Positions 471 to 19,996 of a stretch of DNA of 64,000 nucleotides are shown here, piece after piece (positions within the stretch are counted from its first letter, which is position 1; each line of letters begins with the position of its first letter). A program made the position numbers and the translations under genes. Location: NCBI GenBank assembly GCA_944383245.1, contig CALWOU010000004.1, forward strand, positions 888 to 64,887. The letters run 5' to 3'. The notes under the pieces were generated by a model. It was given only the letters and a program-made list of their open reading frames with translations. It was not told where the DNA came from and ran no database searches. Origin of the DNA: an uncultured Clostridia bacterium (GTDB taxonomy: Bacteria; Bacillota; Clostridia; Christensenellales; UBA1242).

Positions 471-543
471 CTTGAATTATAATATACTCAAGTCACATCA
501 CAGTTTGATTTAAAAACCTTTAAAAATAAAATTTCTATTTTAC

Positions 544-572
544 TTGACAAAATAAATGAAGTCTGCTACAAT
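544..572 (+). promoter_or_regulatory. Sigma-A promoter of tRNA-Leu
   Basis: TTGACA(544-549)-17 bp-TACAAT(567-572) with TG extended -10. Confidence 0.7.
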
Positions 573-678
573 CTCTTTTGTTAATTTCATTTGATAAAAT
601 TTTTACACAAAATGAAATTAAATGCCAACACTATTAGAAATATACTGCAAACAACGAATGATTTAATATCTTAAATAT

Positions 679-763
679 GCGGATATGGCGGAATTGGCAG
701 ACGCGCAAGACTAAGGATCTTGTGGGTAACACCTTGCAGGTTCAAGTCCTGTTATCCGCACCA
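679..763 (+). tRNA. tRNA-Leu, anticodon AAG (A34), CCA encoded
   Basis: GCGGATA/TATCCGC acceptor stem, GGCGGAATTGGCAGACGC D-arm, anticodon arm CAAGA-CT-AAG-GA-TCTTG, long variable arm, GGTTCAAGTCC T-loop, ends ACCA. Confidence 0.95.
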
Positions 764-783
764 GAGAAGCATAAAACGAACCT
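755..783 (+). other. attL (core TCCGCACCA + element arm ending ACGAACCT)
   Basis: Core shared with 13022-13030; 776-783 is the reverse complement of 13000-13007. Confidence 0.8.
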
Positions 784-820
784 TGAAGAAAACTCAAAAT
801 CAAAGTTCGTTTTATTTTTT
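772..820 (+). terminator. Element-supplied hairpin terminator after tRNA-Leu
   Basis: TAAAACGAAC...GTTCGTTTTA stem followed by a T run. Confidence 0.55.
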
Positions 821-864
821 AATAAAGAATATTTTGGATTGAAGATGGAATATTAAACATCAAA

Positions 865-890
865 AAAGGATAATTTTAAAATTATCCTTT
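865..890. terminator. Perfect 26-bp palindrome, likely bidirectional terminator at the end of the defence operon
   Basis: AAAGGATAATTTTAAAATTATCCTTT is self-complementary and sits 5 bp past the stop at 895. Confidence 0.65.
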
Positions 891-894
891 CATT

Positions 895-2496
895 TTATTT
901 TTTTATCATTTCAATAATATTCAATGGTTTTGCAATAATTGTTGTACCATCTGGAGTTTTGCCAGTAGCAAAAACTGTATTCCAAAATTCATAATTATTT
1001 TTACCGCCAAATACAGTCGCGGACATAGAACGATCTCTCCAAATTGGCATATTTTTTAGATTAATAACAAAAGTTCTTATATTATCCCATAAAGTATCTG
1101 AAAATTTTTGTTGAAGCAAATTATCTTTATCATACATGACACCAGAATAAGCAAAATGATTATTTATTAGCAGTTCTATATATTTCAACCAGTTATACAT
1201 AATTTCTTCTTTGAACAATCTATACGCAATAAGATGGTCATCTGGAATTGAATCGCCCTTTCCTGCAACAATACTATTTTCTATTCTATATGTACCAATA
1301 TTATCATCATATTTATCAATTAAAATTTCTTCAGCTAAAATATTACATAAATGAATTGCTTGTTCTCTTTCAAGCATTCTAGGATTCAATCCTTCATCTA
1401 ATTTATAATCCATTGGAGTTGTTAATATTGTCTTCGCATTTATAAATCTTGATAAAAATGTTTTTTCAAAAGTACTATAAGATAAAGGCAATTCATTTCC
1501 TCTACCTTCAAAATTAATATATGATTGCAATTTATTTTCATTTGTTCTTGTTATTGTATTTTTTTGGCTATTTATAATGTATAATTTTACATTACCTTTT
1601 TCACCTTTAAAATAATCAACCAATTTTTGTTCAGAAAAGGATAAATCATCTTCATTAAGGTTATTTTCTTCTCTATATCTTTGAATTCTACTAGCATATA
1701 ATTAATCATGTAATTGCCTTACTATTGCCTTATCAAAAGCTATTTGTTTCAGTTGTTTTCCCGCATTCAAATTTGTAGTCATTAATTTATCAAAATCTGA
1801 ATCAATAAATAAACGTACAACAATTTTTGTTACTCCCAACATAATTTGCGCAACTGTTTTATGTTGTCCATCAAAAATTTTAATTTTGTTATCATCAATT
1901 CTTGCTAAACTTATCTGCAGTTGTGGATTAGGTTTATAAAATTCTTTTATTAGTAAATTAACAGATTTATTTAATCCTCTTGGATTTAAATCATCGTCAT
2001 GATACAAATATTCAAGAGGAACTTCAATAAATGCAGTTTTTTCTCCAGATAAAACATCTTTATAAATGGTAGACTTCTTTATTTCTACATCCCCTATTTC
2101 GTCAAAAGAATATAATAAATCATTATTTTTGATCTTACACTTAAAATCATATTTAGATCCATTGAATACTTTTAAAACGTGTTTTAAAGATGCAGTCTCG
2201 CCATTATTTTCTGCTTCCTGTATTATTTTTTCAAGCTTGAGTATTTTTTTTGCGACAATTAAGTCGGCATCCTGTTTCGTTTTGTTGCAATGTTCATGTG
2301 TAATAGCAAAATTCATCAATTCGTCTTTACCATTATTGGCTAATGGTTTTATATGGTCAATATTTGTATTATTTAAATCTATATCAATCTCTTGCTCGCA
2401 AATAAAGCATTTATGATTTTGAATATCCCACAATTTTCGACTTAATTTATCATATTCTTTTTTATTTAATGAATCTAAATATTTCGAATTACCCAT
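895..2496 (-). pseudogene. HNH endonuclease + ParB/Srx-like (DGQH) domain protein interrupted by a single in-frame TAA
   Basis: ORFs 1702-2496 and 895-1623 are in one frame (1602 bp total); the linker reads HD*LYASRIQRYREENNLNEDDLSFSEQKLVDYF; N-terminal CxxC...DHIKP...HEHCN HNH motif; central NPR...IFDGQHK motif. Confidence 0.8.
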
Positions 2497-2515
2497 ATTC
2501 GTCTTTTCTCCTTTA

Positions 2516-3088
2516 TTAATGCATTGTTATATTTATTAAATTTAATGTTTTTAATCTATAGCGTAAAGCGGATTCTGATACTCCATAGCGTTCTATTAAA
2601 TATTTACAAATGGTAGCCCATATTTTATAATTGCTTTTAGTTATACAAAATGGGGTGGTACATGAGCCTTTGTTTAAACGATATAACATGCTTGTTACTG
2701 CTCGGATTACTTTTTCTTCAGGCATAAGTAAACAAGTTGCAAAATAATCTGCCTCATATTCTATAGGGTCTTTATTTGAACATTCTTCGTTTATGGCAGT
2801 ATCTACATGCGATTTTAGTTGATGACCTAAAAAATAATGTCCAAGTTCGTGTGCTATTGTGAAATTTTTCCTGCCAACATTATCCATATTTGAATTTATT
2901 ATAATATATTTTTGCTCATTTGTTGCTTTTGTAAAAACTCCAGCAAATTTATATGGATTAGATTTAATTTCTCTATATTTTATATTTTCACTTTCACATA
3001 TTTTATTAAATTGTTTATGTGCACCGCCTCTTGAAACATATTTATTTAATATTTCATTTGCCAATTTTTCAATTTCACTTCTTGTCAT
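2516..3088 (-). CDS. ImmA/IrrE-family Zn metallopeptidase
   Basis: RKNFTIAHELGH (HExxH) and EYEADYFATCLLMP motifs, C-terminal VSESALRYRL HTH; ATG at 3088 overlaps the hsdS stop (ORF track extends to 3106). Confidence 0.9.
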   Translation of the reverse strand: MTRSEIEKLANEILNKYVSRGGAHKQFNKICESENIKYREIKSNPYKFAGVFTKATNEQKYIIINSNMDNVGRKNFTIAHELGHYFLGHQLKSHVDTAINEECSNKDPIEYEADYFATCLLMPEEKVIRAVTSMLYRLNKGSCTTPFCITKSNYKIWATICKYLIERYGVSESALRYRLKTLNLINITMH

Positions 3089-4520
3089 CTTCATCCATCG
3101 CATCATATATTTGTTTTAAAATTTCTTCATCAGCATTACCGCGGAGAGCATATCCTTGCATTTGTTTCCATTGATTAAATCCATCAAGATAAGGTATTGT
3201 AATAACTTGTTTACTTTCGCTATCCAATTTCTCGTTTTCCTCTTTAAATGTCACTTGTCCGTTCATAAGAAGCGGTAACAAGAAATCACGCAAAGAAGAT
3301 AATTCTTGATTTTCTTTTCTATTTTTATTCAACTTTTCTATTAAACCAGTAACTAAATTGGCATATTTTATCAAAATATCATCACTTGGTTCAATTATAG
3401 GAAATAAATTCAAATCTTCCTCATTTATTCCTTCTTGTGTAGAGCCACCTGAACGATAATCCTTTAATTTTTCAAAGTATTTTGAAGATATAAAGCCTAC
3501 AATATAAGGAAAAGAATTTTCACCACATTGCAACCCCATAAAACCAGTTGAAATAACATATTTATCTATCATCCAATTATCACTCTTTGAGATAAAAATA
3601 TGCTTTATACTGTTTTTCATCTTTGCAAACCATACAGAATTTAATGTTGATTGCATATTTGCTCGTCCTTCTCTATTCTCATAATCTACTACATTTCCAT
3701 CAATAATATCATTACCAATTACATTTGCGGTAGCCAAATAGATTTTTTTTGAAAAATACTCTACACCTTGTTTTATAATTGAGAATAATCTTGAATTTTT
3801 TAATGTTTTTACTTCCCAGCCTTCGGGAATTTCTCGTTTTAATTGCTCATTATAAACCATTTTGCCACCTGATGATTTATAAGGTCTGCCTTCTTCGTTT
3901 GGAAATTCAAATTGCAAAAACCAATAATCGTAAATTATCTTTGCTAATGCTTCAAGTTTTTCATTATTTTTTTTGTTTATTTCAATTTTTTTATCAATAG
4001 GTTTCAAAATTGATACAATTTTTTCTTGGATATCTTTTGGATAATCTATGACTAATGTATTACGAATCGCTTCCATTGTAATATTTGGCTGTGCAGAACC
4101 CTGTTTACTTTGAAATAAATAACTTTGCCCTATCGGGCTTTGTAAATAATATTTTAAATATTCTAAATCAAAATAATCATCTATTAATTCTATTTTTGCA
4201 ATATTGCTAGCTAAATGACAATCATAAGGATGATAAAAAATGCCAACCTCACCTAAATTGCTCCCAACATAAGGAACTAATATACATCTCTTTGTTAGTT
4301 TACTTCTAATTAAATGATCTGAAATTTCTTTTTTTATGTACCAATCATATTGTTCTACAAAATTACCATCTCTAATGTTTTTGCCTTGAACTAATGGTAT
4401 ATCGCTATCATTTCTTTTATTAACTGTTTGATTATGTTGTATATATTCAGAATGTTCAAACCCTGCAAGTTTAGTAACAAAAACATGAAGACCTAATAAT
4501 TCATATTTAATATTACTCAT
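3075..4520 (-). CDS. hsdS: Type I R-M specificity subunit with an extra 55-aa C-terminal tail
   Basis: Two TRDs with conserved spacers (GSAQPNI...IDKKIEINKK...IPEGW; LRDFLLPLLMNGQV); overlaps hsdM stop. Confidence 0.93.
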   Translation of the reverse strand: MSNIKYELLGLHVFVTKLAGFEHSEYIQHNQTVNKRNDSDIPLVQGKNIRDGNFVEQYDWYIKKEISDHLIRSKLTKRCILVPYVGSNLGEVGIFYHPYDCHLASNIAKIELIDDYFDLEYLKYYLQSPIGQSYLFQSKQGSAQPNITMEAIRNTLVIDYPKDIQEKIVSILKPIDKKIEINKKNNEKLEALAKIIYDYWFLQFEFPNEEGRPYKSSGGKMVYNEQLKREIPEGWEVKTLKNSRLFSIIKQGVEYFSKKIYLATANVIGNDIIDGNVVDYENREGRANMQSTLNSVWFAKMKNSIKHIFISKSDNWMIDKYVISTGFMGLQCGENSFPYIVGFISSKYFEKLKDYRSGGSTQEGINEEDLNLFPIIEPSDDILIKYANLVTGLIEKLNKNRKENQELSSLRDFLLPLLMNGQVTFKEENEKLDSESKQVITIPYLDGFNQWKQMQGYALRGNADEEILKQIYDAMDEDDKK

Positions 4521-6132
4521 ACTTCAACTCCTTAAGACTGCTTTTTATCTCATCTTCAAGAGTTTTGCCTTCAGCGAACAACTTTTCTAAACTAGTTGTA
4601 TATTCTTGTATTTTTTTATTAAACTCTTCTTCAGTGATATCAATATACTCAATTTTAACATCAAAGTATTGTCCTGCAGACAATGAATATCTTTCTTTCA
4701 ATTTATCATAAGAAACAACAACTGAAAACTCATCTTTTGCTTCTTCATTGATAAAAGTATTCACAATTAAATCTATTTCATCATCTGTTAATCTTTTCTT
4801 TTTAAGTCCATCTTCTTGATAATCTTCGCCTAATTTTGATGCGTCAATCAAAACAACATTTTCATGATTTCTTGCGTTATCAAAGAATAATACTGAAACA
4901 TTAGTCCCTGTATTTGCAAATACATTTGATGGCATGCTAATACAGCCATAAACAATTTTATCATCTATAATTTTATGCAATATATTTTTTTCAACACCAG
5001 AAGATGCTGTTATAAAACCAGTTGGGACAACAATAGCACCTTTACCTGTATTCGGCTTTAAAGAATTGATAACATGTTGAATAAAGCAGGTGTAAATTGC
5101 CATGCTAGATTTCTTTTTAGCAGGCACTTTTGGTACACCTGCCCAAAATCTTACAGGCATTGCTGCAATTTTTTCTCGTGTATCTGAGAAATCCATTTTA
5201 AATGGCGGATTTGACACAACAAAATCAAATTGTTTTAAAGATTGTCCATCATCACTTTTATGATACGGATTTGTTAAGGTATCACCTTGTATTGCATGGT
5301 CTAGTGAAGAGATGAGTCCATTAAGAATCAGATTTAATTTTAGCATTTTATTGCTTCGCTGTGAAATATCTTGCGAAAAAATAGTACATTTATCTTCTCC
5401 AATTTGATGAGCAAGTGCCATCAATAATGTTCCCGTTCCAGCTGATGGGTCATAACATTCTATATTATGAAATTCTTTCTGCTTACCAACTAAAAGCCTA
5501 GCCATAATTGTAGCAATTGAATGTGGAGTATAATATTCTGCATATTTACCGCCACCTGCTGTGTTGTAATCTTTTATTAAATATTCAAAAATTGCCGCAA
5601 AAAAGTCATAGTGTTGTGAAAACGCATCTTCAAACGAAAAGTTTACCAATTTATCAACTAATGCTCTAGCAAATGATGCTCGTTGTGATGCATCTGTCAC
5701 ATAATTTGTTAATGGCTCAAACAATGCTATACTTGTATTTTCAGTAGTATGAGTGGCGAATATATCTGCATTCTTCTCAGCAATATCAACCATTGTTCTA
5801 TCAAATATTAATTCAAAATCACCTTTTGCTTGCTGATTCCACAAAAATGAAATCAAATGTTGCGGTTGTAACCTAGGAACATCAACCATTGAATCAAGTA
5901 ATTTGTTTCTTTCTTCTTCTGATAATTCACTGTAAGCAATTTCCCATTTGTCTGCTTTTGCTATTTTAGAATTTAATTTCTTTATCTCATATCCAAATTT
6001 ATCGTTTAAAAATTTATACAAAAACACTTGTGTTATAATTTTATATTCATTACCATCGTTTCCCAATCCATAGGTTTGACAAGTTGCTTTTAAATCATCA
6101 ATCAACTTTATTGTATTTTCTTTTATATCCAT
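4513..6132 (-). CDS. hsdM: Type I R-M N6-adenine methyltransferase
   Basis: EYYTPHSI, YDPSAGTGTLL (motif I), VSNPPF (motif IV). Confidence 0.96.
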   Translation of the reverse strand: MDIKENTIKLIDDLKATCQTYGLGNDGNEYKIITQVFLYKFLNDKFGYEIKKLNSKIAKADKWEIAYSELSEEERNKLLDSMVDVPRLQPQHLISFLWNQQAKGDFELIFDRTMVDIAEKNADIFATHTTENTSIALFEPLTNYVTDASQRASFARALVDKLVNFSFEDAFSQHYDFFAAIFEYLIKDYNTAGGGKYAEYYTPHSIATIMARLLVGKQKEFHNIECYDPSAGTGTLLMALAHQIGEDKCTIFSQDISQRSNKMLKLNLILNGLISSLDHAIQGDTLTNPYHKSDDGQSLKQFDFVVSNPPFKMDFSDTREKIAAMPVRFWAGVPKVPAKKKSSMAIYTCFIQHVINSLKPNTGKGAIVVPTGFITASSGVEKNILHKIIDDKIVYGCISMPSNVFANTGTNVSVLFFDNARNHENVVLIDASKLGEDYQEDGLKKKRLTDDEIDLIVNTFINEEAKDEFSVVVSYDKLKERYSLSAGQYFDVKIEYIDITEEEFNKKIQEYTTSLEKLFAEGKTLEDEIKSSLKELKYE

Positions 6133-6148
6133 TTTTTATTTTTTCTCC

Positions 6149-9100
6149 TTATGCTACCATATATGTCGCATGGTATTGGTCTAAATATTGTTTTGCAACT
6201 CTTTGTAAAATAAAAATTCTATCATTTCTATTGTTTTCGATATGCATTTCGTCTAGTCCGAGAGTAACTTGAGCCAAAACTGTCTTTTCAAAATAGGCGT
6301 CTTGTTTCAATATATCATTTCTGTCATACACTTTTTGATCTACGACTTTCTTTATATTTGATAGAACATCAAATATAGTCTCATCATATTCTGAGATAAT
6401 TATTTGACCTCCACTAACTTTGCGCCTTTCATTTTCTTCTTTAATTCTTTTATGAACTCTCGCGAATTTAGCATCGCCATTATATTTCTTTGCTAATATT
6501 TTATTTTTCTTTTGCAATTCATTTAACTTATCTAAAATTTCATTTAATGCTTTTGATTGTTCATTAAAATGAGCAATGCTATCAATAACAAATCCTCGCT
6601 CCTTAAATCTTTGGAAAAATGCTTCCCTTAAAGTAATATATTCAGGGTCATCCTGATCTAAATTATCAACAAAGCCGCCAATAACTTTCTTCCATAAATC
6701 ATTTAATTCTTCCTTTTGACTTGTCGCAATACGAAGTTCTTCTTCTCCAATCTTATTAAAGTTAAAAGTTATATCTTGCATAGCCTCATTAACTATTTGT
6801 TGAGTTGTATCATCATTAAATATTTCTTTTTGATTAATATAATTTATATGATTTTGAACTTCAGCCAGCATTGGAGTTAAATTTGCAATATTTAAATGGC
6901 TAAAAGCTTCTTTCAAGTCATCATCACCAAATGTTCTAACAATATTTATACAATCTCTTGCTGAAATCAAAACTTTTTTAAGTTTTAGTAATTCATCTTT
7001 ATCTTCTATAGTTGATATCTCAGAACTAAATTCTTCTAAATTGTCTATTGTATAATTAAATAATACCTGTCTTACATCTTTCATCTGCTTAATTAGAGCA
7101 TCTTTATCTTCTATAATTTGATTAAATGTGTCGGTGACATTATCTTTACCAACTTCTTCTGGATCATTGAACCTGTTCAATTCCATCAAATAGGCTTGAT
7201 TTGTTTCATCAAAGTTCTTTTTTATGTCGGCAAAATCAACAACATAACCATATCTATTGTCTTTATATGGACGATTCACACGAGTTAGTGCTTGTAGTAA
7301 ATTGTGATCTTTTAATTTTCTTCCTAGATACATTCTTTTTAATCTTGGAGCATCAAATCCAGTCAACAACATATTATAAACAATAAGAATGTCTATTGTC
7401 ATATTTTTCTTAAAGTCTGTAATAATTTGTTTTCTTGTTTCTTTATCATCGCTATCAAATAGTACTATTCCTGCTTTAAAATCGCTTTGCAGTGATGGTG
7501 ATTGCAAATTTAACTCTTGCTGAATTTCATCAAAATAAGCAAATAATTTTCTAGCCTGCTCACTTGTCTCACATACAATCATACCACCAAGTGTATCATC
7601 ACCGCGAATTATACGGAATTTTTTCAAGTCAGTTATTATATATCTCAACAGTTCTTTAACATAATTATCATGTTCTATTATTTGGTTTCTTCTAACATCC
7701 TTCTTTTGTACAAGTGTTTCAAGCCGTTCATATATTTGTGATAACTTTTCTCTGTATGAAGTTTCAATATCTTCACGAATGAGTTTTAAAGTATAACCAT
7801 CTTGAATTGATTTATCGTAATAGTATGTATGATAATATTCGCCAAACACTTTCCAAGATGCTCTTTCTTCTTTTAGTAATGGTGTTCCTGTTAATGCAAT
7901 TTTAATAGAATCTTTATCAGCATCAAAAAGATTAGCAAGAAAGGTCCCTTTGGGATTGTAACCTCTATGAGCTTCATCTATTATAAAAATGCGTTGCAAA
8001 TTGGTTGCATAAGATGGAATATTAACTTTTTCTGTATCCTCTTCAAATTTTTGAATATTTACAACAGTAATTTCATCTCTGCCGCTTGTACTTTCCTGTG
8101 CCTGTTGAGTTCTAAATTGTTCCATCAACTCCGTTCTTGTATTTGCAGTTTTAACAACAAGACCTCTTGCTTCAAATTCTTGCGATGCTTGTTCAAGCAA
8201 ATCTAATCTATCAACAATGAAATAGAATTTTGCAACTTTATTTTGTTTAGCAAAATAATCTTTTAAAACATTCGTTAAATGATATGACAATGCTGTTTTA
8301 CCACTTCCTTGTGTGTGCCATATAACACCTGAACACATACCATTATTAATTTTATCACGAACAATCATTGATGCAAAAAATTGTTGATATCGCATAATAT
8401 GTTTCTCGTCTGTAGATTCTAAAACTCCATCAACCTCGCGTTCCATTTTAACATAAGCGATACCATATTTAATTAAAAACAAAAATCTTTCAGGAGAACA
8501 CATTGAAGTAATAATTCTATTTGTCGGTGTGTTTATATTAAGATTAGTTTGATATTCTATTGAATGGTGTATAACTTGGCAATTATAATCAGTTAAAATT
8601 TTCTCTTCTAAATTTTTATCAATATCAAGATAATTAAAATTTTTGATAAATGGTGCTACACTATCATTTAATTTGTTTTCCTCACGAAAACAATTGAATT
8701 TAGCTTCTTTTCTTGCTGTCGTACAATAAAAAGCACCTTGGATAGGAACTATTCCACCTTCGGCATCATATTCCATATTATTCGAAAATATCATTAATTG
8801 GGTTATATTTAAAAATCTTCTAAATTTTCTATTAGGGAACCTTAAATCATTCATTCGCTTACTTTCAGTTAACATTCCACCATTATTATTAGGCTTTTTT
8901 ACTTCTATAAAACATAGTGGCAATCCGTTCACAAAAAGTGTAATATCTGGGCGAAATTCTTCCTGATCTCTTTTGCAAGTAAATTCGCCGGTAAAATGAA
9001 ACACATTATTCTTTGGATTGTCAAAATCTACTAATTTATATGGCGACAAGGATACCAATTTTTTATAAAAACTTTTTCCCAAATCATCATAATCTAATTC

Positions 9101-9322
9101 AGTAACTATATCATGCAAAACTTGATCTGCCTTACCTGCATTGTTTGGATTTAATTTTGCAAATTGATTTTTAAAAACATCAATTAAAATATTAGTATTT
9201 TGCTCATAAATACTACCAGTATCTTCTTCATGAATTTTCCCAAAATATTTATATCCAATTCTTGTCAAATGAACCATAGCGGGGATTTGAACACGCGTGG
9301 CTTCATTAAATTTTACTTCCAT
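6149..9322 (-). CDS. hsdR: Type I R-M restriction subunit
   Basis: RPDITLFVNGLPLCFIEVKK nuclease motif, HTQGSGKT Walker A, IDEAHR, TGTP, MLLTGFDAP, QALTRVNR helicase motifs. Confidence 0.96.
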   Translation of the reverse strand: MEVKFNEATRVQIPAMVHLTRIGYKYFGKIHEEDTGSIYEQNTNILIDVFKNQFAKLNPNNAGKADQVLHDIVTELDYDDLGKSFYKKLVSLSPYKLVDFDNPKNNVFHFTGEFTCKRDQEEFRPDITLFVNGLPLCFIEVKKPNNNGGMLTESKRMNDLRFPNRKFRRFLNITQLMIFSNNMEYDAEGGIVPIQGAFYCTTARKEAKFNCFREENKLNDSVAPFIKNFNYLDIDKNLEEKILTDYNCQVIHHSIEYQTNLNINTPTNRIITSMCSPERFLFLIKYGIAYVKMEREVDGVLESTDEKHIMRYQQFFASMIVRDKINNGMCSGVIWHTQGSGKTALSYHLTNVLKDYFAKQNKVAKFYFIVDRLDLLEQASQEFEARGLVVKTANTRTELMEQFRTQQAQESTSGRDEITVVNIQKFEEDTEKVNIPSYATNLQRIFIIDEAHRGYNPKGTFLANLFDADKDSIKIALTGTPLLKEERASWKVFGEYYHTYYYDKSIQDGYTLKLIREDIETSYREKLSQIYERLETLVQKKDVRRNQIIEHDNYVKELLRYIITDLKKFRIIRGDDTLGGMIVCETSEQARKLFAYFDEIQQELNLQSPSLQSDFKAGIVLFDSDDKETRKQIITDFKKNMTIDILIVYNMLLTGFDAPRLKRMYLGRKLKDHNLLQALTRVNRPYKDNRYGYVVDFADIKKNFDETNQAYLMELNRFNDPEEVGKDNVTDTFNQIIEDKDALIKQMKDVRQVLFNYTIDNLEEFSSEISTIEDKDELLKLKKVLISARDCINIVRTFGDDDLKEAFSHLNIANLTPMLAEVQNHINYINQKEIFNDDTTQQIVNEAMQDITFNFNKIGEEELRIATSQKEELNDLWKKVIGGFVDNLDQDDPEYITLREAFFQRFKERGFVIDSIAHFNEQSKALNEILDKLNELQKKNKILAKKYNGDAKFARVHKRIKEENERRKVSGGQIIISEYDETIFDVLSNIKKVVDQKVYDRNDILKQDAYFEKTVLAQVTLGLDEMHIENNRNDRIFILQRVAKQYLDQYHATYMVA

Positions 9323-9431
9323 TTTTCTTCTCCATCTATAATTTAATTAATTATAACATAAATTTTTATATTTTTACATAGTTTTTTATAAGGTTTTAGC
9401 AAATAATTATAAAAAATTTTCAAAAATGAGA

Positions 9432-9499
9432 TTCTGGCGTGTGCTTGTCTTGATACAAGTGGCGTCGCTAAAGCTCCGCCAGACAAGCACACGCCAGAA
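9432..9499. repeat. Perfect 19-bp inverted repeat; left arm belongs to a 28-bp motif repeated at 11274 and 11310
   Basis: TTCTGGCGTGTGCTTGTCT (9432-9450) / AGACAAGCACACGCCAGAA (9481-9499). Confidence 0.85.
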
Positions 9500-10150
9500 A
9501 AACTAAATCTGTCAATTTTTGAATAGAAAAGTAAAAATAAAAACTTTGACACAACTAAAATTTGATATAAAATCAAAAAATTTCAAAACTTACTTCCGCA
9601 AACAAAACGGCATCTAAAATGAGAGGCTGGCAAAGGGTGAACCCATATTGCCCCACGCCTCCTCATTTTTTTACGATGCCGTTTTTTGTATTTGCTTGTT
9701 TTTTGCAATGCAAAATTTTTGCTTTTTAAAATTATTCATTGTTTTCTTACAATAAATGAATTTAGTTTTAAATTTGTATATTTGCTTTTTATCTATAAAT
9801 ATAAAGCAAATATTAAAATCGTTTTGTAAGTTAAAAATCACTCCTTTTCTTCGCCTTTTGGCTGGTAGTTGTGGCATAGTTTTCACAACAATTCAAGGGA
9901 AATATATATTTTAGTTTTCTTTTAAGATTAAGGTTTTACCTTAGTCTTTTTTTCATTGCACAAAATATATATTTCTTCTTCCTTGACTTGTTGTTCCCCA
10001 AATACAAATATATTGAGTTATATTTTAAAGATTTATTGTGTATTCAAGTGTATAAACATCTATTTTCTATTGTTTAACAATATAAAATAAATTATTAATC
10101 AAACTATGCTCTTTTTGTTTGTGCCAAAAGGCAAATAAAAGGAGCAATAT

Positions 10151-10783
10151 ATGAGAGAAGTAAAAAAGAAAAAAGGAATTTTAGATGATAACACAGTTAT
10201 CACCTTAGAAAACATTGAAAAGTTATCTCAATGTTTCGCACAATCTGCACTCAAAAGCATTAAGAAATATGCTTATAGTGCAACACCAAAAGTCGAAAGA
10301 TTGCAAAGTCTATTAAGGCAAGATATTTGCTATCACAAAAAATTAGATACTTATTCAGATGCATATGATTTAGTCCAAGAAGCAAGTTTGTTTCTATGCA
10401 AATTCATAGGACACAGACTTGGCGAACTTTGCAAAGATTCCAAATCAAAATCTGGAAAGATAGATAATCTCAAAAATGCTTGCCTTAGAGTTTTGCAAGT
10501 ATATCTACGAAAAGAATTAAAGTTTTCAAACAACACAGTAGACGAAAACGAATGCTTTGAAGTTATAGATGAAAGACCTATCATTCAAGATAAGCCTGAC
10601 TACACGAAAGTTAAAGAAGTGTTATCTAAAATCATACAAAACAGGTTCGAATACCAAATATTTGAATACTATTACAACGGAGTTGAGCCAAAACTAATAG
10701 CAGAATTTTTAGGAATTAGTGTAGATAAAGTTTACAAACGAAGAAGAAAATTCAAAGATAGATATGCAATGCTTTATATGTAA
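10151..10783 (+). CDS. Sigma-70/ECF-like regulator of the element
   Basis: AAGGAG RBS; region-2-like DAYDLVQEASLFL; C-terminal region-4 HTH (YYNGVEPKLIAEFLGISVDKVYKRR). Confidence 0.7.
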   Translation: MREVKKKKGILDDNTVITLENIEKLSQCFAQSALKSIKKYAYSATPKVERLQSLLRQDICYHKKLDTYSDAYDLVQEASLFLCKFIGHRLGELCKDSKSKSGKIDNLKNACLRVLQVYLRKELKFSNNTVDENECFEVIDERPIIQDKPDYTKVKEVLSKIIQNRFEYQIFEYYYNGVEPKLIAEFLGISVDKVYKRRRKFKDRYAMLYM

Positions 10784-11158
10784 AAATTTCAAGTATTCCA
10801 CAATAAAAAGTGGAATATTTTTTTGAATATTGCCTTAACTTCCACATATTTTCGTGGCTATATATAGAGAAGAATAGTAAAAATTGTGCGACTTTTTACC
10901 AAAAACTACAACTTTGTTTGCAAAAAGTATGTGAAAAGTACTAGTTTACTACCAGTTTTGTTCCTTACAATACAACCACATTTGTGCTATTCTCTTATTG
11001 AAATTAAATTAGACAACGCAAAATGGCAAGCCCTGAAGTTAGTTTTATTGGTATGCTCTAAGCCAAAATTTGAGAGTCAGTGGTTGCATTTATGGGCGTA
11101 GAAAAAATTTTTTCTATGTCTTTTTTAATTCCAAATTTTAGAAAAAAGGAGTTAAAAA

Positions 11159-11293
11159 ATGCAAACATTAAAAGTCGAAAATGTGAATGATTTGGACTTA
11201 TCGTTTCTCTCAAATGATTTTTTCATTGAAATTTTAAGTTTAATCATTCAAAACAAAAAAAGGCAATGCAACCCTGGCGTGTACTTGTCTTGA
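11159..11293 (+). CDS. 44-aa small protein upstream of the recombinase (not in ORF track)
   Basis: AAAGGAG RBS then MQTLKVENVNDLDLSFLSNDFFIEILSLIIQNKKRQCNPGVYLS*. Confidence 0.45.
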   Translation: MQTLKVENVNDLDLSFLSNDFFIEILSLIIQNKKRQCNPGVYLS

Positions 11294-11337
11294 ACAAGTG
11301 AGTGAGATCCTAGCGTGTGCTTGTCTTGATACAAGTG
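11274..11337 (+). repeat. Two tandem copies of the CTGGCGTGTGCTTGTCTTGATACAAGTG motif
   Basis: 11310-11337 differs from 9434-9461 at 1 of 28 nt; 11274-11300 has one substitution and one deletion. Confidence 0.85.
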
Positions 11338-11512
11338 ATTAGTCTTTCGGGTGCAAAGTTTAAACGAAAACTCACTCTTGTCAAAGGTAAAATGCATTGT
11401 TTCACAACCTTTGACAATAGTATAAGAATTTTGAAGATAAAATATAAATTCGTTTCCGTTTGTTTCGCCCCTGTCGAAAGACAAAATCTATAAAATAAAA
11501 GGAGAAAATAAA

Positions 11513-13075
11513 ATGAAAACAGCAGTAATATATGCCCGTTATAGTTCGGACAGTCAATCTGAGCAAAGTATTGAAGGACAAATTCATGTTTGTAAAGATT
11601 ATGCAGAGAAAAACAACATCGTCATTGTTGATACCTACATTGATAGAGCAATGACAGGAACAAATGATAACCGAATTGCTTTTCAAAAGATGTTGAAAGA
11701 TAGTTCAAACCACCAATTCTCAATCGTGCTTGTCTACAAACTTGATAGATTTTCGAGAAACAAATATGAAAGTGTTATCCATAAGAAAACACTTAAAGAC
11801 AACGGAGTAAGTCTTGTCTCTTGTATGGAAAACATACCAAACACTCCAGAAGGGACGCTTATGGAAACACTACTTGAAGGCTTTAATCAATATTTCAGTG
11901 AAGAACTAACTCAAAAAGTGAATCGTGGACTTCGAGAAAGTTGGCTTAAAGGTAATGCAACAGGTGGTAAAAAGGTTTTTGGATATGACATAGTAAACAA
12001 AAAATATGTGATAAACGATTATGAAAAAGAAATTATCTTAAAAGTGTTTCAAATGTATGCAAGTGATTGCAGAGCGAGAGTGATTGCTGAAACTTTGAAT
12101 GAATTAGGCTATCACCGAAATAATGGCAAAAAGTTTGATGAAAAATATGTTTTATGGATACTCCACAATTCAAGATATACAGGAGTCGTAGAACATCACG
12201 GCATAAAGTATGAAAAAATCTTTCCACGAATTATTGATGATAACCTTTGGAATAAAGTCAATACAATAAATGAAGAAAATAAATTTGCACCAAGCAGAAA
12301 GAAAGAGATTTATGACTATATCCTATCTGGCAAACTGATTTGTGGCGAATGTAAACATAAAATGTATGGCGAAAGCGGAACGAGCCACACAAAAGATATT
12401 CACTACTACTATGTTTGTGCTTCACGAAGAAAGAAAAGATGCCCATGCACTATGAAGGCGATTAAAAAGCAAGTGCTTGAAGATATGGTGATAAACACAA
12501 TCACTCATCTTTTGAATAGCGAGCAAAACATACAACTCCTAACAAATGCAATTTTTAACTATCATCAAAAACACTCACAAGATAATGCCAATTTAAAACT
12601 ATTAGAACAAAAAAGAAAAGAAACTTATAAAGCAAGCCAAAATATCTTGAAAGCCATTGAGCAAGGAATAATTACGGACTTAACAAAATCTCGCTTACAA
12701 CAACTTGAAAATGAACTTGCCGAGTTAGATATTGAAATAACAAAAGAAAAGTATAGAGATAACTCGCTTTTAACAAAAGAAGAAATCGAACAATTTTTAC
12801 GAAAACAAGTGTTTGAAGATACGCAAAACATAAAAATTCGCAAACTACTTGTAAACACCTTTGTTCGAGCAGTATATCTCTACAATGATAAAGTGGTAAT
12901 TCTATTCAACTACACTGACTCACCCGACAAACCGAAATTCACAGTTGAAGAAAACATAGAAACCGAAAAGCAGATAAACTCTGCTTTATCTAATACCTCA
13001 GGTTCGTGCTTATACCTTCACTCCGCACCACACTTTAAAACCATCTATTTTATAGACAATCTATGTATTCGATGA
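11513..13075 (+). CDS. Large serine recombinase (integrase)
   Basis: AVIYARYSSDSQ catalytic Ser motif, VYKLDRFSR, recombinase domain, Zn ribbon (LICGECK...YYVC...C), coiled coil. Confidence 0.95.
   Translation: MKTAVIYARYSSDSQSEQSIEGQIHVCKDYAEKNNIVIVDTYIDRAMTGTNDNRIAFQKMLKDSSNHQFSIVLVYKLDRFSRNKYESVIHKKTLKDNGVSLVSCMENIPNTPEGTLMETLLEGFNQYFSEELTQKVNRGLRESWLKGNATGGKKVFGYDIVNKKYVINDYEKEIILKVFQMYASDCRARVIAETLNELGYHRNNGKKFDEKYVLWILHNSRYTGVVEHHGIKYEKIFPRIIDDNLWNKVNTINEENKFAPSRKKEIYDYILSGKLICGECKHKMYGESGTSHTKDIHYYYVCASRRKKRCPCTMKAIKKQVLEDMVINTITHLLNSEQNIQLLTNAIFNYHQKHSQDNANLKLLEQKRKETYKASQNILKAIEQGIITDLTKSRLQQLENELAELDIEITKEKYRDNSLLTKEEIEQFLRKQVFEDTQNIKIRKLLVNTFVRAVYLYNDKVVILFNYTDSPDKPKFTVEENIETEKQINSALSNTSGSCLYLHSAPHFKTIYFIDNLCIR
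13000..13030 (+). other. attR (element arm AGGTTCGT + core TCCGCACCA)
   Basis: Core identical to tRNA 3' end; lies in frame in the recombinase (GSCLYLHSAP). Confidence 0.8.
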
Positions 13076-13286
13076 ATAAAATAAAAAAAGATGATTAATA
13101 CAAGTTTTATAAGATTTGACAACACGTGTATAAAAAAAACTACCACAATGTTAATTTTTAGGCACAAAAGTTGGTCAAATTTGGATCAAAATATTATTAC
13201 ATAAAAGACATAATCATCAAAACAGAACACACTTTTCTTTTTAAATATTTTAGCAATCGTTGACATTCCATAAAACGGAGATAAAA

Positions 13287-13985
13287 ATGAAACAAAACAT
13301 TAAAAACTCAAAATATGAATATATATTTTTTGATTTAGATGACACCTTGCTAGATTTCCAAAATGATTGCAAAAAGGCTTTTAAGATGTCTTGCGATGAA
13401 ATAGGATTAAAATTAAAAAATGCATATGAAATCTATAACAAAATTAATATGCAATTATGGGATGATTTTGCTGATAAAAAAATAGAATTAGCAAAATTGT
13501 TAAAATTAAGATTTGAATTATTTTTTAAAAAAGTAAATTTTAATTTTGATAATGAAAAATTCCAACAAATACTAACAAAGTATATGTCAACTTGTGGTAA
13601 AAGAATACAAGGTGCAAAAAGTATCGTTAAATATTTGCACAAAAAATACACACTTATTGCAATTACCAATGGCGTAAGCAAAGAGCAAAAATGCAGATTA
13701 AAAAATGCCAATTTAGATAAATTTTTTAATAAAGTATTCATTTCACAAGACATAGGAACAGAAAAGCCAAATCCAGAATTTTTTAAATACTGTTTAAGGT
13801 CTTTAAAGTTAAAAAACACCAACAATATTCTTATAGTTGGAGATAGTTTAAAATCTGATATCAAAGGTGGCATTTTGGCAAACATAGAGACCTGCTGGTT
13901 TAATAGGCTTGGCATTGATAACAATACAAACATTACACCAAACTATGTAATTAAAAAATTAAAAGAGCTAAAAAATATTTTATAA
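13287..13985 (+). CDS. YjjG-family HAD nucleotidase
   Basis: FFDLDDTLLDF motif I, ITNG, EKPNPEFF, VGDSLKSDI; GGAG RBS before ATG 13287. Confidence 0.88.
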   Translation: MKQNIKNSKYEYIFFDLDDTLLDFQNDCKKAFKMSCDEIGLKLKNAYEIYNKINMQLWDDFADKKIELAKLLKLRFELFFKKVNFNFDNEKFQQILTKYMSTCGKRIQGAKSIVKYLHKKYTLIAITNGVSKEQKCRLKNANLDKFFNKVFISQDIGTEKPNPEFFKYCLRSLKLKNTNNILIVGDSLKSDIKGGILANIETCWFNRLGIDNNTNITPNYVIKKLKELKNIL

Positions 13986-14017
13986 ACTTTTAATTAACCA
14001 ATAGCAATTAATATTAT

Positions 14018-14050
14018 GTCGGTTCGGATGCTTTATCACTTGTCGCACCA
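14018..14050 (+). repeat. att-like relic 1 (GGTTCG-N18-GCACCA)
   Basis: GTCGGTTCGGATGCTTTATCACTTGTCGCACCA; 29/31 identical to 15701-15731; same spacing as attR. Confidence 0.7.
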
Positions 14051-14147
14051 CAAAATACAAAGAGAGAAGTCCAATCCAAGCTTCTCTCTTTTGTTTTGAA
14101 ATATAAAAATTTTATGATACACTAAAAATGTTAAAAGGTGGGCGTTT

Positions 14148-14546
14148 ATGAAAGATTTAATGAAAAGTAATATCTATGATTGTTCTGATGAAATTGTAAT
14201 TGTAGGAAGTTGTTTAAAATCTATGCAACCAAGGGCTTTTGAAGAGATTGAAAAAATGAAATTACCTATTTTTGAATTATGTTTGGAACAAACACATATC
14301 AATATGGCACTCACCAAAATTTTGGGAATGATAAGAGCGAAGAAAATTAAAAAAATATTATTTGCAAGTGTTGACAAATCACCACATTGCATTCAATTAC
14401 ATTATATACAAGATGAAATAAGAAAACTTGGCTTTGAATTAAACTTTGAAAATTATGTAGCGGTTGACGATACACTTTTCAAAATTTCAAAAGAAACAAT
14501 TGCTCTATCAAAAAATTTAAGCAAATTAAGTTTAATAGATAAATAA
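14148..14546 (+). CDS. Small conserved Cys/His protein, possibly metal or Fe-S binding
   Basis: GSCL, CLEQTH and KSPHC motifs; followed by a hairpin terminator (~14586-14615). Confidence 0.7.
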   Translation: MKDLMKSNIYDCSDEIVIVGSCLKSMQPRAFEEIEKMKLPIFELCLEQTHINMALTKILGMIRAKKIKKILFASVDKSPHCIQLHYIQDEIRKLGFELNFENYVAVDDTLFKISKETIALSKNLSKLSLIDK

Positions 14547-14661
14547 ATTATTAAATTTTACTGTTATTGTTTTAAACTAGCATAAAAAAGAAGTTAATTT
14601 TAAAACTTCTTTTTTCTTGTAACATATTGAAAATTTAGATTTGGTGTGTTAGTATATCTAT

Positions 14662-15636
14662 GTGATAAAAGATTTATGCTTTGAGATTATACAAAAATGT
14701 CCAAATAGTTGTGTGTTTTGTTCTTCAAATAGCGATTATCAAAAAAATAATGTAATTGATTTTCCAACTATTAAAAGAACAATCGACTTTTTTATGGCAA
14801 ATGGCGGGATTAAAGAAATTTCTTTATCTGGTGGCGAACCTTTATTGCACCCAAATATAATGCAAATAATATCTTATTGCCATAATTTGGGTATATACAC
14901 AACACTTTATACTAGCGGAATAATAGAAAACACTTTTAATGAACAAACTGACAATAAATATTTTCAAAAAATATTAGAGCAATACAACAATAGAAAATTT
15001 TCTGAAATACCATTGAATATATTACAACAATTAAAACAAGCAGGGCTAAATAAGATTGTTTTTGATATGCAAGCATCCGAAGTGGATGAATACAACTCAT
15101 TAATGGGAACAAAAAATAATTTTACAAACATATTAGACTCTATTCTTAACACATCAAAATTTGATTTTAAAACATCCATTCATTTTGTGCCTAATAAAAT
15201 AAATGTTGACCAATTTAGAGATATTGTTGAACTTGCAGAGATTGCTGGAATAAATGAAGTTAGATTGCTAAAATTCGTTCCACAAGGTAGAGGTCGAGAA
15301 AATAAAGAAGCCCTGCAACTGACTAATGATGAACTACTTATGTTTATTAAAGATTGCCAAACTATTAGAACAAAAAATACAAAATTGAAAATAGGCATTC
15401 CCTTACAACAACAAAATAGTCACAAATGCACAGCAGGATTTGATAAAATCGACATTAGATTTGATGGTCAGGTTTTACCCTGCCCTGCATTTAAGGATAC
15501 AAGAGAAGAACTCTTAAAAAAGAAAGGTTTTGAAAGTATAAATATTTACAAAAATTTAACCGATTTTAAGTTTTTACAAGGTATAGCAAGAGAAATTCCT
15601 TTGTGCGAACAAATAAACGACGAAAAATGTTTTTAA
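14662..15636 (+). CDS. Radical SAM protein with a short Twitch/SPASM-like C-terminus
   Basis: CPNSCVFC (CxxxCxxC), SGGEPLLH, C-terminal CTAG...GQVLPCPAF...C; GTG start. Confidence 0.88.
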   Translation: MIKDLCFEIIQKCPNSCVFCSSNSDYQKNNVIDFPTIKRTIDFFMANGGIKEISLSGGEPLLHPNIMQIISYCHNLGIYTTLYTSGIIENTFNEQTDNKYFQKILEQYNNRKFSEIPLNILQQLKQAGLNKIVFDMQASEVDEYNSLMGTKNNFTNILDSILNTSKFDFKTSIHFVPNKINVDQFRDIVELAEIAGINEVRLLKFVPQGRGRENKEALQLTNDELLMFIKDCQTIRTKNTKLKIGIPLQQQNSHKCTAGFDKIDIRFDGQVLPCPAFKDTREELLKKKGFESINIYKNLTDFKFLQGIAREIPLCEQINDEKCF

Positions 15637-15700
15637 ACTATGAATAATTAATTATTAAATTTTCTTAACCACACATAACCAATGCCAACTTTGACTTGTG

Positions 15701-15733
15701 GTCGGTTCGGATACTTTATAACTTGTCGCACAA
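15701..15733 (+). repeat. att-like relic 2 (GGTTCG-N18-GCACAA)
   Basis: GTCGGTTCGGATACTTTATAACTTGTCGCACAA; near-identical to 14018-14050. Confidence 0.7.
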
Positions 15734-15882
15734 AAAAATGACACAGCTTTTTCTTATTGCGGTTCTCAATCGCATTAATAAAATCTCTGGTGGTCATCTT
15801 TTCTTTTGTTTTTCTTAATATAAATTTGACTATATAATTTTTTTGTGTTAGACTAAAAAATAAAGGAGAAATAATAAAAATT

Positions 15883-16926
15883 ATGGTGAATAAAAATAAA
15901 AGTTTGTTTATTGCACAATGCGTGCTATTGGTTATTATATTTTTATCTTGCTTTGAGTTTATATTTAATGGTTTTCATTTATTTGAATTGTTAAATCAAG
16001 ATCAATCTTTTTCAACCAAAGTATACATAAACTCAATAAAATATATTCCAATCGTTTTAAGTGTGGCACTTTTTGTTATAGTGATAATTTCTGCTTTTAA
16101 AATAGCCTATAACAAATATATAAGGCTAACCAAAATTTTAAATATAATATTGTTGATATTTATCTTTGCGCTAATGATTTATATGCTAGTAAGTTTTGTG
16201 CAATTATTCACTTCACTAGATAAATATTATCAACGTGACTCATATCTAGGTAATTCTATTTATTCTATAAGTAAAGATTATTACTTTGTTACGGCTTGTT
16301 ATGAATTATGTTTGGAATTTCAGTTAACACTAATAGTTGACATTTTGATTATCTTCACTTATGGAATTTTAGTTTTTGTTGAGCAAATTTTGGGAAACAA
16401 CAGAAAGCCATTATTTGCAATCCTTTGTGGTGTTTGTTTAATTGTTAGTTTTGTGTTTTGGGGAGCGTTTGGAATGCTTACCAAAAGCAACGCCGATATC
16501 TCTTTGAGTTATTATTACAACTATGGTTCTATAAGTTATTCATCTAATTACAAACCACAAATAACGTATTATTTTGTAAATATAACGGACCAAGAACTAA
16601 CTAATTTAGAAGTTACTTACACATACAAATTAAACGGCGAAGAAATCTCTAACACCTACACTATTGATTCATTCCCTGCGATTGCAAGAGTTGAACTATT
16701 TGAATGTGACTATGAAGGTTTTGAATTTGTTTCTATTGTTGTAAATTGTGATCAATATTCTAATTTAACGCTTGCGCAAAATTATACTTTAAATTCAAAA
16801 TCTAAACCTATGTTAGGCTTAGCAATTCCATCATCCGCACTAGCCTTGACATTTGGTATTTTATATTACACCCCACTAAGTAAAAGGAAAATAGATAATA
16901 CTGAATTATTAGAAAACCCTGTTTAA
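15883..16926 (+). CDS. Multi-pass membrane protein of unknown function
   Basis: AAAGGAG RBS; about 6 hydrophobic segments plus an extracellular beta-rich domain; terminator AAATAGACCT/AGGTCTATTT at 16947-16972. Confidence 0.8.
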   Translation: MVNKNKSLFIAQCVLLVIIFLSCFEFIFNGFHLFELLNQDQSFSTKVYINSIKYIPIVLSVALFVIVIISAFKIAYNKYIRLTKILNIILLIFIFALMIYMLVSFVQLFTSLDKYYQRDSYLGNSIYSISKDYYFVTACYELCLEFQLTLIVDILIIFTYGILVFVEQILGNNRKPLFAILCGVCLIVSFVFWGAFGMLTKSNADISLSYYYNYGSISYSSNYKPQITYYFVNITDQELTNLEVTYTYKLNGEEISNTYTIDSFPAIARVELFECDYEGFEFVSIVVNCDQYSNLTLAQNYTLNSKSKPMLGLAIPSSALALTFGILYYTPLSKRKIDNTELLENPV

Positions 16927-17057
16927 ATTTCTTTATATTAAAAATAAAATAGACCTATGTCAAGGTCTATTTTTTTAAAATTTTAATTGTTTATAAAAGT
17001 TATGGTAACGTTGCCGTTGTTGCAGTTGGTTATTAATCGTTTTGCGCCTTCTAGTTT

Positions 17058-17342
17058 TTGAGTTGGGAGATTGCGGGCATATACGAAACAAACAATGAAA
17101 AAAGTCTATTCGCCGTATGTACAAAGTATAGCAACGACGAAAATATCAAAATTTTACCTAAGGGAAAATATCTGTGCGCAAATTGTGATGAGTTAGAGCG
17201 AGATAAAACGCGTGAAAAACTTATTAGCATTGCAAAAAATGAATATTTAATTGAACCAAAATTTATAGTGGAAATTATTGTTTTAACAGGTATACTTAAG
17301 TGGGATTATCAAATTCAAATTTTTGTAGAAAAGAATAAATAA
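17058..17342 (+). pseudogene. 5'-truncated MerR-family regulator (effector-binding C-terminal fragment)
   Basis: LPKGKYLCA...EIIVLTGILKWDYQIQI resembles BmrR/BltR-type C-terminal domains; no RBS/ATG and no HTH upstream. Confidence 0.55.
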
Positions 17343-17363
17343 ATTTTATGAAAAAATATTACG

Positions 17364-18626: not shown

Positions 18627-18831
18627 ATTCTCTCCATTTTATTTAAAATCTAAAATTTTATAATAACAAATAAACTAAGAATAAACGCAACAAAACAGGT
18701 GTTAATTTAAACATAAAACATTAACTTATAGACGATGAAAATAAACACAAGTTTCATATTTAGTAACTTTATAACTAGTATATAAAATGAAAAACAAAAA
18801 GTAAAAAGATTTAACGTGCAATTATTTTATT

Positions 18832-19704: not shown

Positions 19705-19854
19705 AATTTTATCTCAATTTCCATATTTTGGCAAATAAATTTATAAAATCGACAAAAATTTTTTAAAAAAAAGTAAAATAAGGTCTTATATTAGATTATT
19801 AGAGTCAAAATGTTGGACAAATCAATAATATTTTTAGGTATAAACAAAAAATAG

Positions 19855-19883
19855 TTGAAAAAATTTTTTATTTTGTTTATAAT
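19855..19883 (+). promoter_or_regulatory. Sigma-A promoter of the nucleoside hydrolase gene
   Basis: TTGAAA-17 bp-TATAAT. Confidence 0.55.
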
Positions 19884-19996
19884 AATGGATACGAAATTTG
19901 TGGTTTTATAAATTTTAATTATTTGCAATTAGATTAAAACTATTTGATAATTTAAATAATTAAAAAAACTTTTACGTATAATAAAATGGAGAAAAT

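Follow-up and report, generated by a model that had tools for sequence, protein, structure and literature searches.

Stacked blocks with putative serine-recombinase half-sites downstream of a tRNA-Leu gene in an uncultured gut Clostridia bacterium

The tRNA-Leu locus and the copies of the motif

The DNA analysed here (the window) is a stretch of 64,000 nucleotides, C4:888-64887, from the metagenome-assembled genome (MAG) of an uncultured Clostridia bacterium, a genome of 1.17 Mb with 31.5% G+C. An earlier note, made from the letters of the window, had pointed to an array of attachment-site-like motifs bracketing small gene blocks downstream of a tRNA-Leu gene, and it is these blocks and the elements related to them that are considered here. 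The tRNA-Leu(AAG) gene was called by both ARAGORN and Rfam at 679..763 and is followed by an integrated island of 12,267 bp (764..13030), an integrase-less HAD block of 1,020 bp (13031..14050), an integrase-less block of 1,683 bp with a Cys/His protein and a radical SAM gene (the CysHis-rSAM block, 14051..15733) and a distal variable block (15734..16976), all on the + strand, as are the parts of them described below. The island was delimited with Pfam and empty-site contigs, and its cargo comprises by Pfam an HNH nuclease, an M78 peptidase and the type I restriction-modification (R-M) genes hsdS/M/R, besides which it encodes a 210-aa protein and a large serine recombinase (LSR). The gene for the latter (11513..13075) has Resolvase, Recombinase and Zn_ribbon_recom domains and overlaps with its 3' end the motif at the right end of the island, termed the P arm for reasons given below.

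The HAD block consists of a 256-nt leader, a gene at 13287-13985 for a YjjG-family HAD pyrimidine nucleotidase (NCBIfam TIGR02254, above cut-off) and an end unit at 13979-14050 that includes a P arm (14021-14050). The CysHis-rSAM block begins with a hairpin (14061-14089) and a promoter-like TTGAAA-16-TACACT (14096-14123), followed by an AF_0155-family Cys/His protein (14148-14546), a radical SAM/SPASM-like gene (14662-15636) and an end unit (15662-15733) with a P arm (15704-15733) ending GCACAA. A consensus promoter scan was uninformative in such AT-rich DNA (33 found against 28 expected), and the promoter was called from its conservation among elements. The gene and domain content bears out the reading of these as blocks without a recombinase, one gene lying in the first and two in the second. 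The distal block encodes a 347-aa membrane protein (15883-16926), and its right edge lacks a P arm.

The earlier note had proposed that one geometry, GGTTCG-N18-GCACCA, recurs three times. It is present at 13001-13030 and 14021-14050; the third copy, at 15704-15733, departs from it by one mismatch, ending GCACAA rather than GCACCA. When the pattern was relaxed to GGTTCG-N(10-24)-GCAC, the window held three matches (13001, 14021 and 15704) where 0.23 would be expected, and none of 100 shuffles reached three. The 31-mer GTCGGTTCGGATRCTTTATMACTTGTCGCAC, at 14018-14048 and 15701-15731, proved to be 29/31 identical between its two copies, as had been claimed, with 0 expected, and these are the sole copies in the 1.17-Mb genome with up to 6 mismatches allowed. 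The likeness between the copies, and with relatives elsewhere, runs ~42 nt further upstream and defines a 72-nt unit (13979-14050 and 15662-15733). Each motif copy does lie 3' of a gene, namely that for the serine recombinase (11513-13075), the HAD/YjjG nucleotidase (13287-13985) or the radical SAM protein (14662-15636).

That position, together with the tRNA-like words GGTTCG and GCACCA, is what might suggest a generic intergenic repeat or terminator, or tRNA 3' fragments duplicated by tyrosine integrases. Against a generic repeat, the genome holds just two copies, a profile of the 72-nt unit matched 17 of 64 genus genomes with 1-3 copies each, and the nearest upstream tRNA on the same strand was a tRNA-Leu in 33 of the 34 informative loci (those with such a tRNA within the retrieved DNA), at distances of 657-4156 nt and with all five anticodons represented. 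Against tRNA fragments, neither ARAGORN nor Rfam called a tRNA at the copies, the tRNA-Leu(AAG) gene reads GGTTCA-N13-GCACCA with 13 nt between the words rather than 18, only 6-9 nt are identical with the tRNA, and no tyrosine recombinase was found in the island or in the autonomous elements described below. The view that these are not tRNA duplicates is upheld, true copies of the tRNA 3' end are rejected, and copy number and tRNA-Leu association refute this whole explanation, to which next to no credence is given.

Two other identities of the 72-nt unit were rejected. As a structured or tRNA-like RNA it lacks a conserved fold and covariation: an RNAalifold alignment of 19 units gave -2 kcal/mol, 6 pairs and no compensatory changes, and the only Rfam family matched in 1-20000 was tRNA itself. 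As an integrase-coding remnant it has stops in the GGT-TCG frame in family-B units, and it is not such a remnant because the cognate integrase reads the opposite (P') arm and not the P arm.

Strain variants and attachment-site geometry

Three nested states of the locus are seen in contigs of other chicken-gut samples, picked out because they code for the identical Cys/His or HAD protein. In the first (L070-L074) the GCACCA of the tRNA is followed by CTAAATACAAAGAGAGAAG, so that the Cys/His block lies directly 3' of the tRNA. In the second (L069, L075 and L076) it is followed by CACTTTAAAACC, the HAD gene, a further GCACCA and CAAAATACAAAG. The third, that of the window, is the second with 12,267 bp between the tRNA and CACTTT. 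Every junction lies immediately 3' of GCACCA, and each block boundary proposed in the earlier note is a real population breakpoint. Invariance of the blocks across relatives would have spoken against mobility; the 12,267-bp island, the 1,020-bp HAD block and the distal block are each present in some strains and absent from others, and the breaks fall exactly at GCACCA. The CysHis-rSAM block arrived first, the HAD block second and the 12.3-kb R-M island last, each at the tRNA end.

The metagenome runs that contain this DNA derive from the chicken gut, and the empty site of the island was found in three independent ones, the contigs of which join 754 to 13022 via the common TCCGCACCA (a 9-nt overlap); depth in these runs was ~1 over the island and 20-30 on its flanks. 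The same empty site occurs in the ENA contigs L069, L075 and L076. At the other end of the stack, 15734-16976 is swapped in other strains for an unrelated block of 713-716 nt that starts exactly at the end of the third motif.

The three motifs are very probably the element-side (P) half-sites of LSR attachment sites, a view that draws on the sequences at both ends of the elements. The P half-site of the island, GGTTCGTGC-N15-GCACCA (13001..13030), has the same ending as that of a homologous element in genome G005, and directly 3' of the tRNA lies its inverted partner at equal spacing, the P' half-site GAGAAGCATA-AAACGAACC (764..782). Many other elements found directly 3' of a tRNA begin GCACCA-N10-ATCCGAACC, and joining the two ends of such an element gives an attP of 49 bp, GGTTCGGAT-N15-GCACCA-N10-ATCCGAACC, which is an imperfect palindrome. 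The outer inverted repeat of the reconstructed attP is matched 9/9 in 13 of 14 elements, including miniature ones (minis) of 687-1860 bp, and 7/9 in the island of the window (GGTTCGTGC...AAACGAACC).

Rutherford et al. (PMC3783163) showed that positions 16-24 of the attP half-sites hold a 9-bp motif recognised by the zinc-ribbon domain (ZD) of LSRs, and that in attB this motif is displaced 5 bp towards the centre. At the present locus the 9-bp outer motif stands 15 bp from GCACCA in the element arms and 10 bp from it in the 3' part of the tRNA, where the host-side (B) half-site reads GGTTCAAGT-N10-GCACCA (739-763), i.e. 5 bp nearer the centre. The displacement accounts for the spacings of N18 and N13 on which the earlier note had remarked, and the T-arm of the tRNA supplies the same 9-bp outer motif, as is expected of an LSR attB. 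Comparison of junctions places the exchange inside the common GCACCA, the island sharing the 9 nt TCCGCACCA; strand exchange probably occurs within GCACCA and likely at GC, the crossover dinucleotide suggested by the symmetry of attP. The P' arm also belongs to a terminator hairpin 3' of the restored tRNA. LSRs are the sole recombinases in the elements and are encoded at an element end across an att arm; that they catalyse the reaction, and where exactly the crossover falls, we infer from sequence.

The LSR of the window and the integrase of a related type of element, named here after genome G065, share PF00239, PF07508 and PF13408, the 3' end of the gene overlapping the P arm in the former and the P' arm in the latter. 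In the G065 type the integrase gene lies on the opposite strand beside the tRNA, reads over the P' arm and ends ...PSGSDCSH. The likeness of the translated motif (GSD...) to an integrase C-terminus, on which the earlier note had remarked, is incidental to the 9-bp motif GGTTCGGAT and arises because the cognate integrase reads across the P' arm.

Some further features of the island and its surroundings are recorded here. In 9434-9497 and 11270-11335 the non-coding backbone contains a 17-bp perfect inverted repeat, CTGGCGTGTGCTTGTCT...AGACAAGCACACGCCAG, and, 5' of the integrase gene, two more copies of the form GGCGTGT(G/A)CTTGTCTTGA(T)ACAAGTG; an operator or origin-like function is conceivable for this motif. 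Metagenome depth at the repeat far exceeds that of the rest of the island, reaching ~700 at 9449-9454, and for this reason the motif is taken to be common to many elements. In four runs the integrase-side backbone (9094-13000) had a depth of ~2-94 compared with ~0-11, mostly 1-3, for the R-M cargo (1021-9093); related elements having the same backbone with other cargo must therefore be common. Several replacement joints were seen within the island at 9497-9601, 9694-9841 and 9994-10088. To the left of the tRNA, depth rose to 170-550 over positions 400-480, compared with 20-30 nearby, and three runs had loose ends at 479. This short stretch, which has no Rfam match, seems to be multi-copy or widely shared; no repeat connecting the high-depth spots near 436 and 9438 was found. 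The homology of strains left of tRNA-Leu begins at ~365-366. Further left (1-365) other strains carry different defence islands: CBASS (SMODS and SAVED with M78/HTH), a 1004-aa helicase with Hypoth_Ymh, Z1 with HATPase and Fic, or a reverse transcriptase with an N6 methylase. This left flank of the tRNA forms a second variable hotspot.

The element family and its movement

The small blocks of the window belong to a family that is widespread in gut Clostridia (Candidatus Onthoplasma and relatives). The exact P-arm pattern was found in 6 of the 64 genus genomes, and a pattern scan with one genome per species returned 94 stretches from Onthoplasma, Caccovivens, Scatosoma and other Clostridia MAGs, the animal hosts being chicken, sheep, deer, rabbit and human. 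In many of the matches the end coincides with position k of a k-mer assembly, which marks an assembly branch point at GCACCA. A scan of metagenome contigs gave 17 stretches, all with a single copy and none in a longer array.

Three size classes can be distinguished. Autonomous elements of 2.9-6 kb carry an LSR, one or two variable genes, a conserved Cys-rich protein, a hairpin, a promoter, optional cargo and the 72-nt unit; decayed elements of 2.1-2.4 kb retain integrase fragments; and integrase-less elements of 0.66-1.8 kb have one cargo gene between conserved ends. Many of the last class have both arms perfect and a terminator and promoter of their own. In one subfamily the 5' module of ~150 nt consists of a palindrome (GTGTTTAC..TAAACAC), a hairpin (AGAGAGAAG..CTTCTCTCT) and a promoter (TTTACA-17-TATAAT), and 3' of it follow a single open reading frame (ORF) of 110-330 aa and, 3-25 nt past the stop codon, the start of the 72-nt unit. 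The position directly 5' of the units is occupied by 23 distinct, unrelated protein clusters, the cargo including GNATs, RlmN/Cfr-like radical SAM methyltransferases (below family cut-offs), a histidine phosphatase and many unknowns.

The conserved Cys-rich protein, of 81-86 aa, is encoded in every autonomous element just 5' of the terminal cassette, e.g. MKNNKMDSLDCCNSS...EIAFQFAHDL...NGGDLINLSAKS (L018 7786-8040, from G065; also L081, L129, L131, L158, L124 and L062). No Pfam family matches this protein, which may be a recombination directionality factor or a regulator. In a second arm type, GGTTCAATTTAG-N-GGTGCACCA, the GGTTCAA lies within a terminator hairpin (TTGAACCTAG...CTAGGTTCAA); this type was found in L066 (G018:C1:140837), L064/L065 (G072), G010, G014 and G020:C5, the hairpin occurring also 3' of the third motif in strains L070 and L076. 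This is probably another LSR element lineage.

The case that integrase-less members have moved is made by two of them. The copies of a 1,750-bp element at tRNA-Leu(TAA) of one MAG and at tRNA-Leu(AAG) of Candidatus Onthoplasma faecigallinarum share 99.9% identity; the homology ends at GCACCA and the flanks are unrelated. A second, of 1.3 kb, occurs at tRNA-Leu(CAA), at tRNA-Leu(CAG) and also in second place in an array, where it begins right after the GCACCA of the first unit. That near-identical copies without an integrase stand at distinct tRNA-Leu genes of separate genomes is best explained if such elements were mobilised as units. On this evidence and that of the strain variants, the favoured reading, with a probability of about 0.8, is that LSR-mediated insertions have stacked at tRNA-Leu and that the small blocks come from a family whose members could be mobile without an integrase of their own.

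An LSR would insert an element at the 3' end of tRNA-Leu and restore the tRNA end each time, so that the next element would enter at the same place and older ones would be shifted downstream. Minis with both arms intact could be moved in trans by an integrase from elsewhere. In cis-mobilisation a mini would, after accretion, travel joined to an autonomous neighbour that later leaves, a route that the lack of a P' outer motif in the 1,750-bp element would fit. The earlier note had envisaged minimal cassettes mobilised in trans, of which mobilisation as units stands, while the choice between trans and cis is a matter of deduction from the arms. Two copies of the 1.3-kb mini (L116 and L085) differ in 7 of the first 10 nt after GCACCA, L116 having AGTGAGAGCA, the version typical of integrase-bearing elements; L116 looks like a hybrid left by the loss of an adjacent autonomous element via the repeated ATCCGAACC.

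The two blocks of the window are a different matter. Their left ends (CACTTTAAAACC... and CAAAATACAAAGAG...) have no recognisable P' outer motif, though their P arms are intact, and because of this it is doubtful that an LSR could excise or integrate them canonically as they now stand; most likely they are fixed relics. Over its positions 7-516 (hairpin, promoter and AF_0155 gene) the CysHis-rSAM block shares 85% identity with the right end of the integrase-bearing elements L081, L158 and L096, in which the end unit comes straight after the AF_0155 gene. The block is probably the trimmed right end of an autonomous element that also held the radical SAM gene, and the earlier note's alternative of eroded older elements gains support here. 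No relatives of the HAD block were found in the retrieved set of loci, its exact protein occurs at this locus only and an integrase-bearing context for the gene was not found, so the HAD block may either have arrived small or have been trimmed in place. Several relatives show deletions with the left end exactly at the crossover, which would be integrase-mediated deletions against a secondary site and would account for the clean GCACCA junctions in the window.

These observations lend themselves to an account by decay alone, in which all small blocks were once integrase-bearing elements trimmed on site and none moved without an integrase. In its favour are the elements of 2.1-2.4 kb with integrase remnants, the match of the CysHis block to autonomous right ends, the missing P' motifs, the left breakpoints of several minis exactly at the crossover, as integrase-mediated deletion would yield, and the confinement of the HAD protein to this locus. 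It would, however, require identical deletions to have arisen independently, which is very unlikely, in order to place the 1,750-bp element at two tRNA-Leu genes with unrelated flanks and the 1.3-kb one at three positions; moreover many minis have both arms perfect and a P' arm that differs from the integrase-coding version. Decay in place as the whole explanation is quite improbable.

A number of points weigh against the reading of stacked LSR insertions with integrase-less mobility. Recombination was not directly observed: in two comparisons with eight chicken-gut runs no circles or back-joints were found, only 'skip' joints, the data being assembled contigs, which drop rare forms. (Joints 14050->18118 and 14052->16980 were not relied on, their sides being 22-29 nt at 90% likeness and possibly from other species.) All genomes are MAGs, and at any single locus misassembly at a repeat is possible. 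The +2 base at the junction differs, being CTAAAT in HAD-free and CAAAAT in HAD-bearing strains. The 5-bp displacement is matched in the B arm, in the tRNA, but the right half-site on the host side (B') has no recognisable motif and is not conserved. To these must be added the missing P' motifs of the window's blocks and the 42 conserved nt 5' of the P arm, which have no conserved fold and no role in this reading. Lastly, the genome has no close (>70%) homologue of the G065-type integrase. The nearest is a partial LSR, 48% identical, on contig C6, where tRNA-Ser(GCT) is followed by a near-identical P' arm, ATTGTGAGCA-ATCCGAACC, and by the LSR gene, truncated by the contig end (C6:52504-53472). 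Given this LSR and its matching P' arm, an enzyme reading the same outer motif may occur in this genome, and the same element family also uses a tRNA-Ser.

The regular build of the minis raises the further possibility of a dedicated cassette system analogous to integrons, in which promoter-bearing one-gene cassettes are exchanged at the right ends of autonomous elements and at tRNA-Leu, the 42 nt 5' of the P arm being a second functional recombination or accessory site. It is consistent with this that the same ~150-nt 5' module and 72-nt 3' unit flank at least 20 unrelated ORFs, that the unit follows so closely on the stop codon, that 'empty' promoter-unit modules exist in G065, G066, G069 and run X12, and that three one-gene cassettes stand in a row in G020. 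Two stand in a row in L156 and in L157, but no array of more than three units was found in the species-representative, metagenome-contig or genus-genome scans. Against it, the 5' edge of the cargo yielded no second recombination site, a conserved fold is lacking in the unit, and homologous recombination between conserved modules could equally swap cargo. Such a system is conceivable but doubtful.

Comparison with known systems

The cis-mobilizable elements (CIMEs) lack an integrase, are bounded by att sites, sit beside an autonomous element of equal site specificity in a tandem arrangement, and arise by deletion (PMC5704250). The blocks of the window lack integration and transfer genes and stand in tandem with an LSR-bearing island at the same tRNA-Leu; both att arms are kept in many of the relatives' minis but not in the window's blocks. 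Accretion of CIMEs with integrative and conjugative or mobilizable elements (ICEs, IMEs), as with ICESt1/ICESt3 of Streptococcus thermophilus, is alike in that the stack grows by repeated site-specific insertion. Classic CIMEs, however, employ tyrosine integrases and long direct repeats, whereas here there is an LSR, a shared core of 6-9 nt and a tRNA-Leu target, and many of the minis measure 0.66-1.8 kb and hold a single gene plus a terminator and promoter of their own.

The ssrA islands of Dehalococcoides use a CcrB-like serine recombinase, DsiB, to insert in the 3' part of a tRNA-like gene, in tandem downstream of it; 15 islands without an integration module were proposed as CIMEs, and an element-side motif beside the repeat could not be aligned to the host gene (PMC3146451). 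These too are LSR elements stacked at a tRNA-like gene with integrase-less members. They differ in having a tmRNA target, a 20-bp direct repeat, multi-gene islands and a six-gene integration module; miniature promoter-bearing cassettes have not been described from them nor ZD-motif geometry analysed. Composites of the staphylococcal cassette chromosome (SCC), including SCCmec and ccr-less pseudo-SCC, share LSR insertion at the 3' end of a conserved gene and att-delimited tandems, the recombinase-less members relying on Ccr from another element (in part from PMC3146451). Their target is rlmH (orfX), they span tens of kb and they use paired CcrA/CcrB, in contrast to a single LSR, tRNA-Leu and kb-scale units. 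The tycheposons of Prochlorococcus likewise bring cargo to tRNA genes, newcomers pushing older elements inward and leaving degenerate remnants, but 910 of 937 use tyrosine recombinases, partial tRNA repeats are left and many have replication modules (bioRxiv 10.1101/2020.12.28.424599).

Mobile integrons resemble the present family in their small one-gene units, the recombination site just past the stop codon, the stacking and the diverse accessory cargo. They have the tyrosine recombinase IntI, an attI/Pc platform for promoterless cassettes and attC sites folded into imperfect hairpins, none of which is found here, where each unit has its own promoter and the LSR would act on double-stranded sites; the locus is not an integron, and the integron-like array of the earlier note holds only as an analogy. 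It is at most a tentative suggestion that the family is a serine-recombinase counterpart of the integron, in which cassettes (terminator, promoter, ORF and 72-nt unit) are exchanged among autonomous elements and accreted at tRNA-Leu. If true, it would give gut Clostridia of ~1 Mb a dedicated means to sample accessory genes.

Apart from that suggestion, the natural intermediates show a tRNA gene turning into a growing stack of accessory and defence genes by what would be serine-integrase insertions, and the att sites are a natural case of the 5-bp ZD-motif rule for attP and attB, built on a tRNA T-arm. Compact attP/attB pairs with integrases for a conserved tRNA sequence are of possible interest to tool builders, and the cargo includes predicted GNAT acetyltransferases and RlmN/Cfr-like methyltransferases in gut bacteria of farm animals. 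No earlier description of kb-scale, integrase-less, self-expressed one-gene LSR elements with a complete 49-bp attP was found, and there is apparently none. In its behaviour the locus matches the tandem accretion of CIMEs, the ssrA islands of Dehalococcoides, SCC composites and the inward pushing of tycheposons; it is set apart by its tRNA-Leu target, the LSR half-site geometry on the T-arm, kb-scale self-expressed one-gene units and their spread across species.

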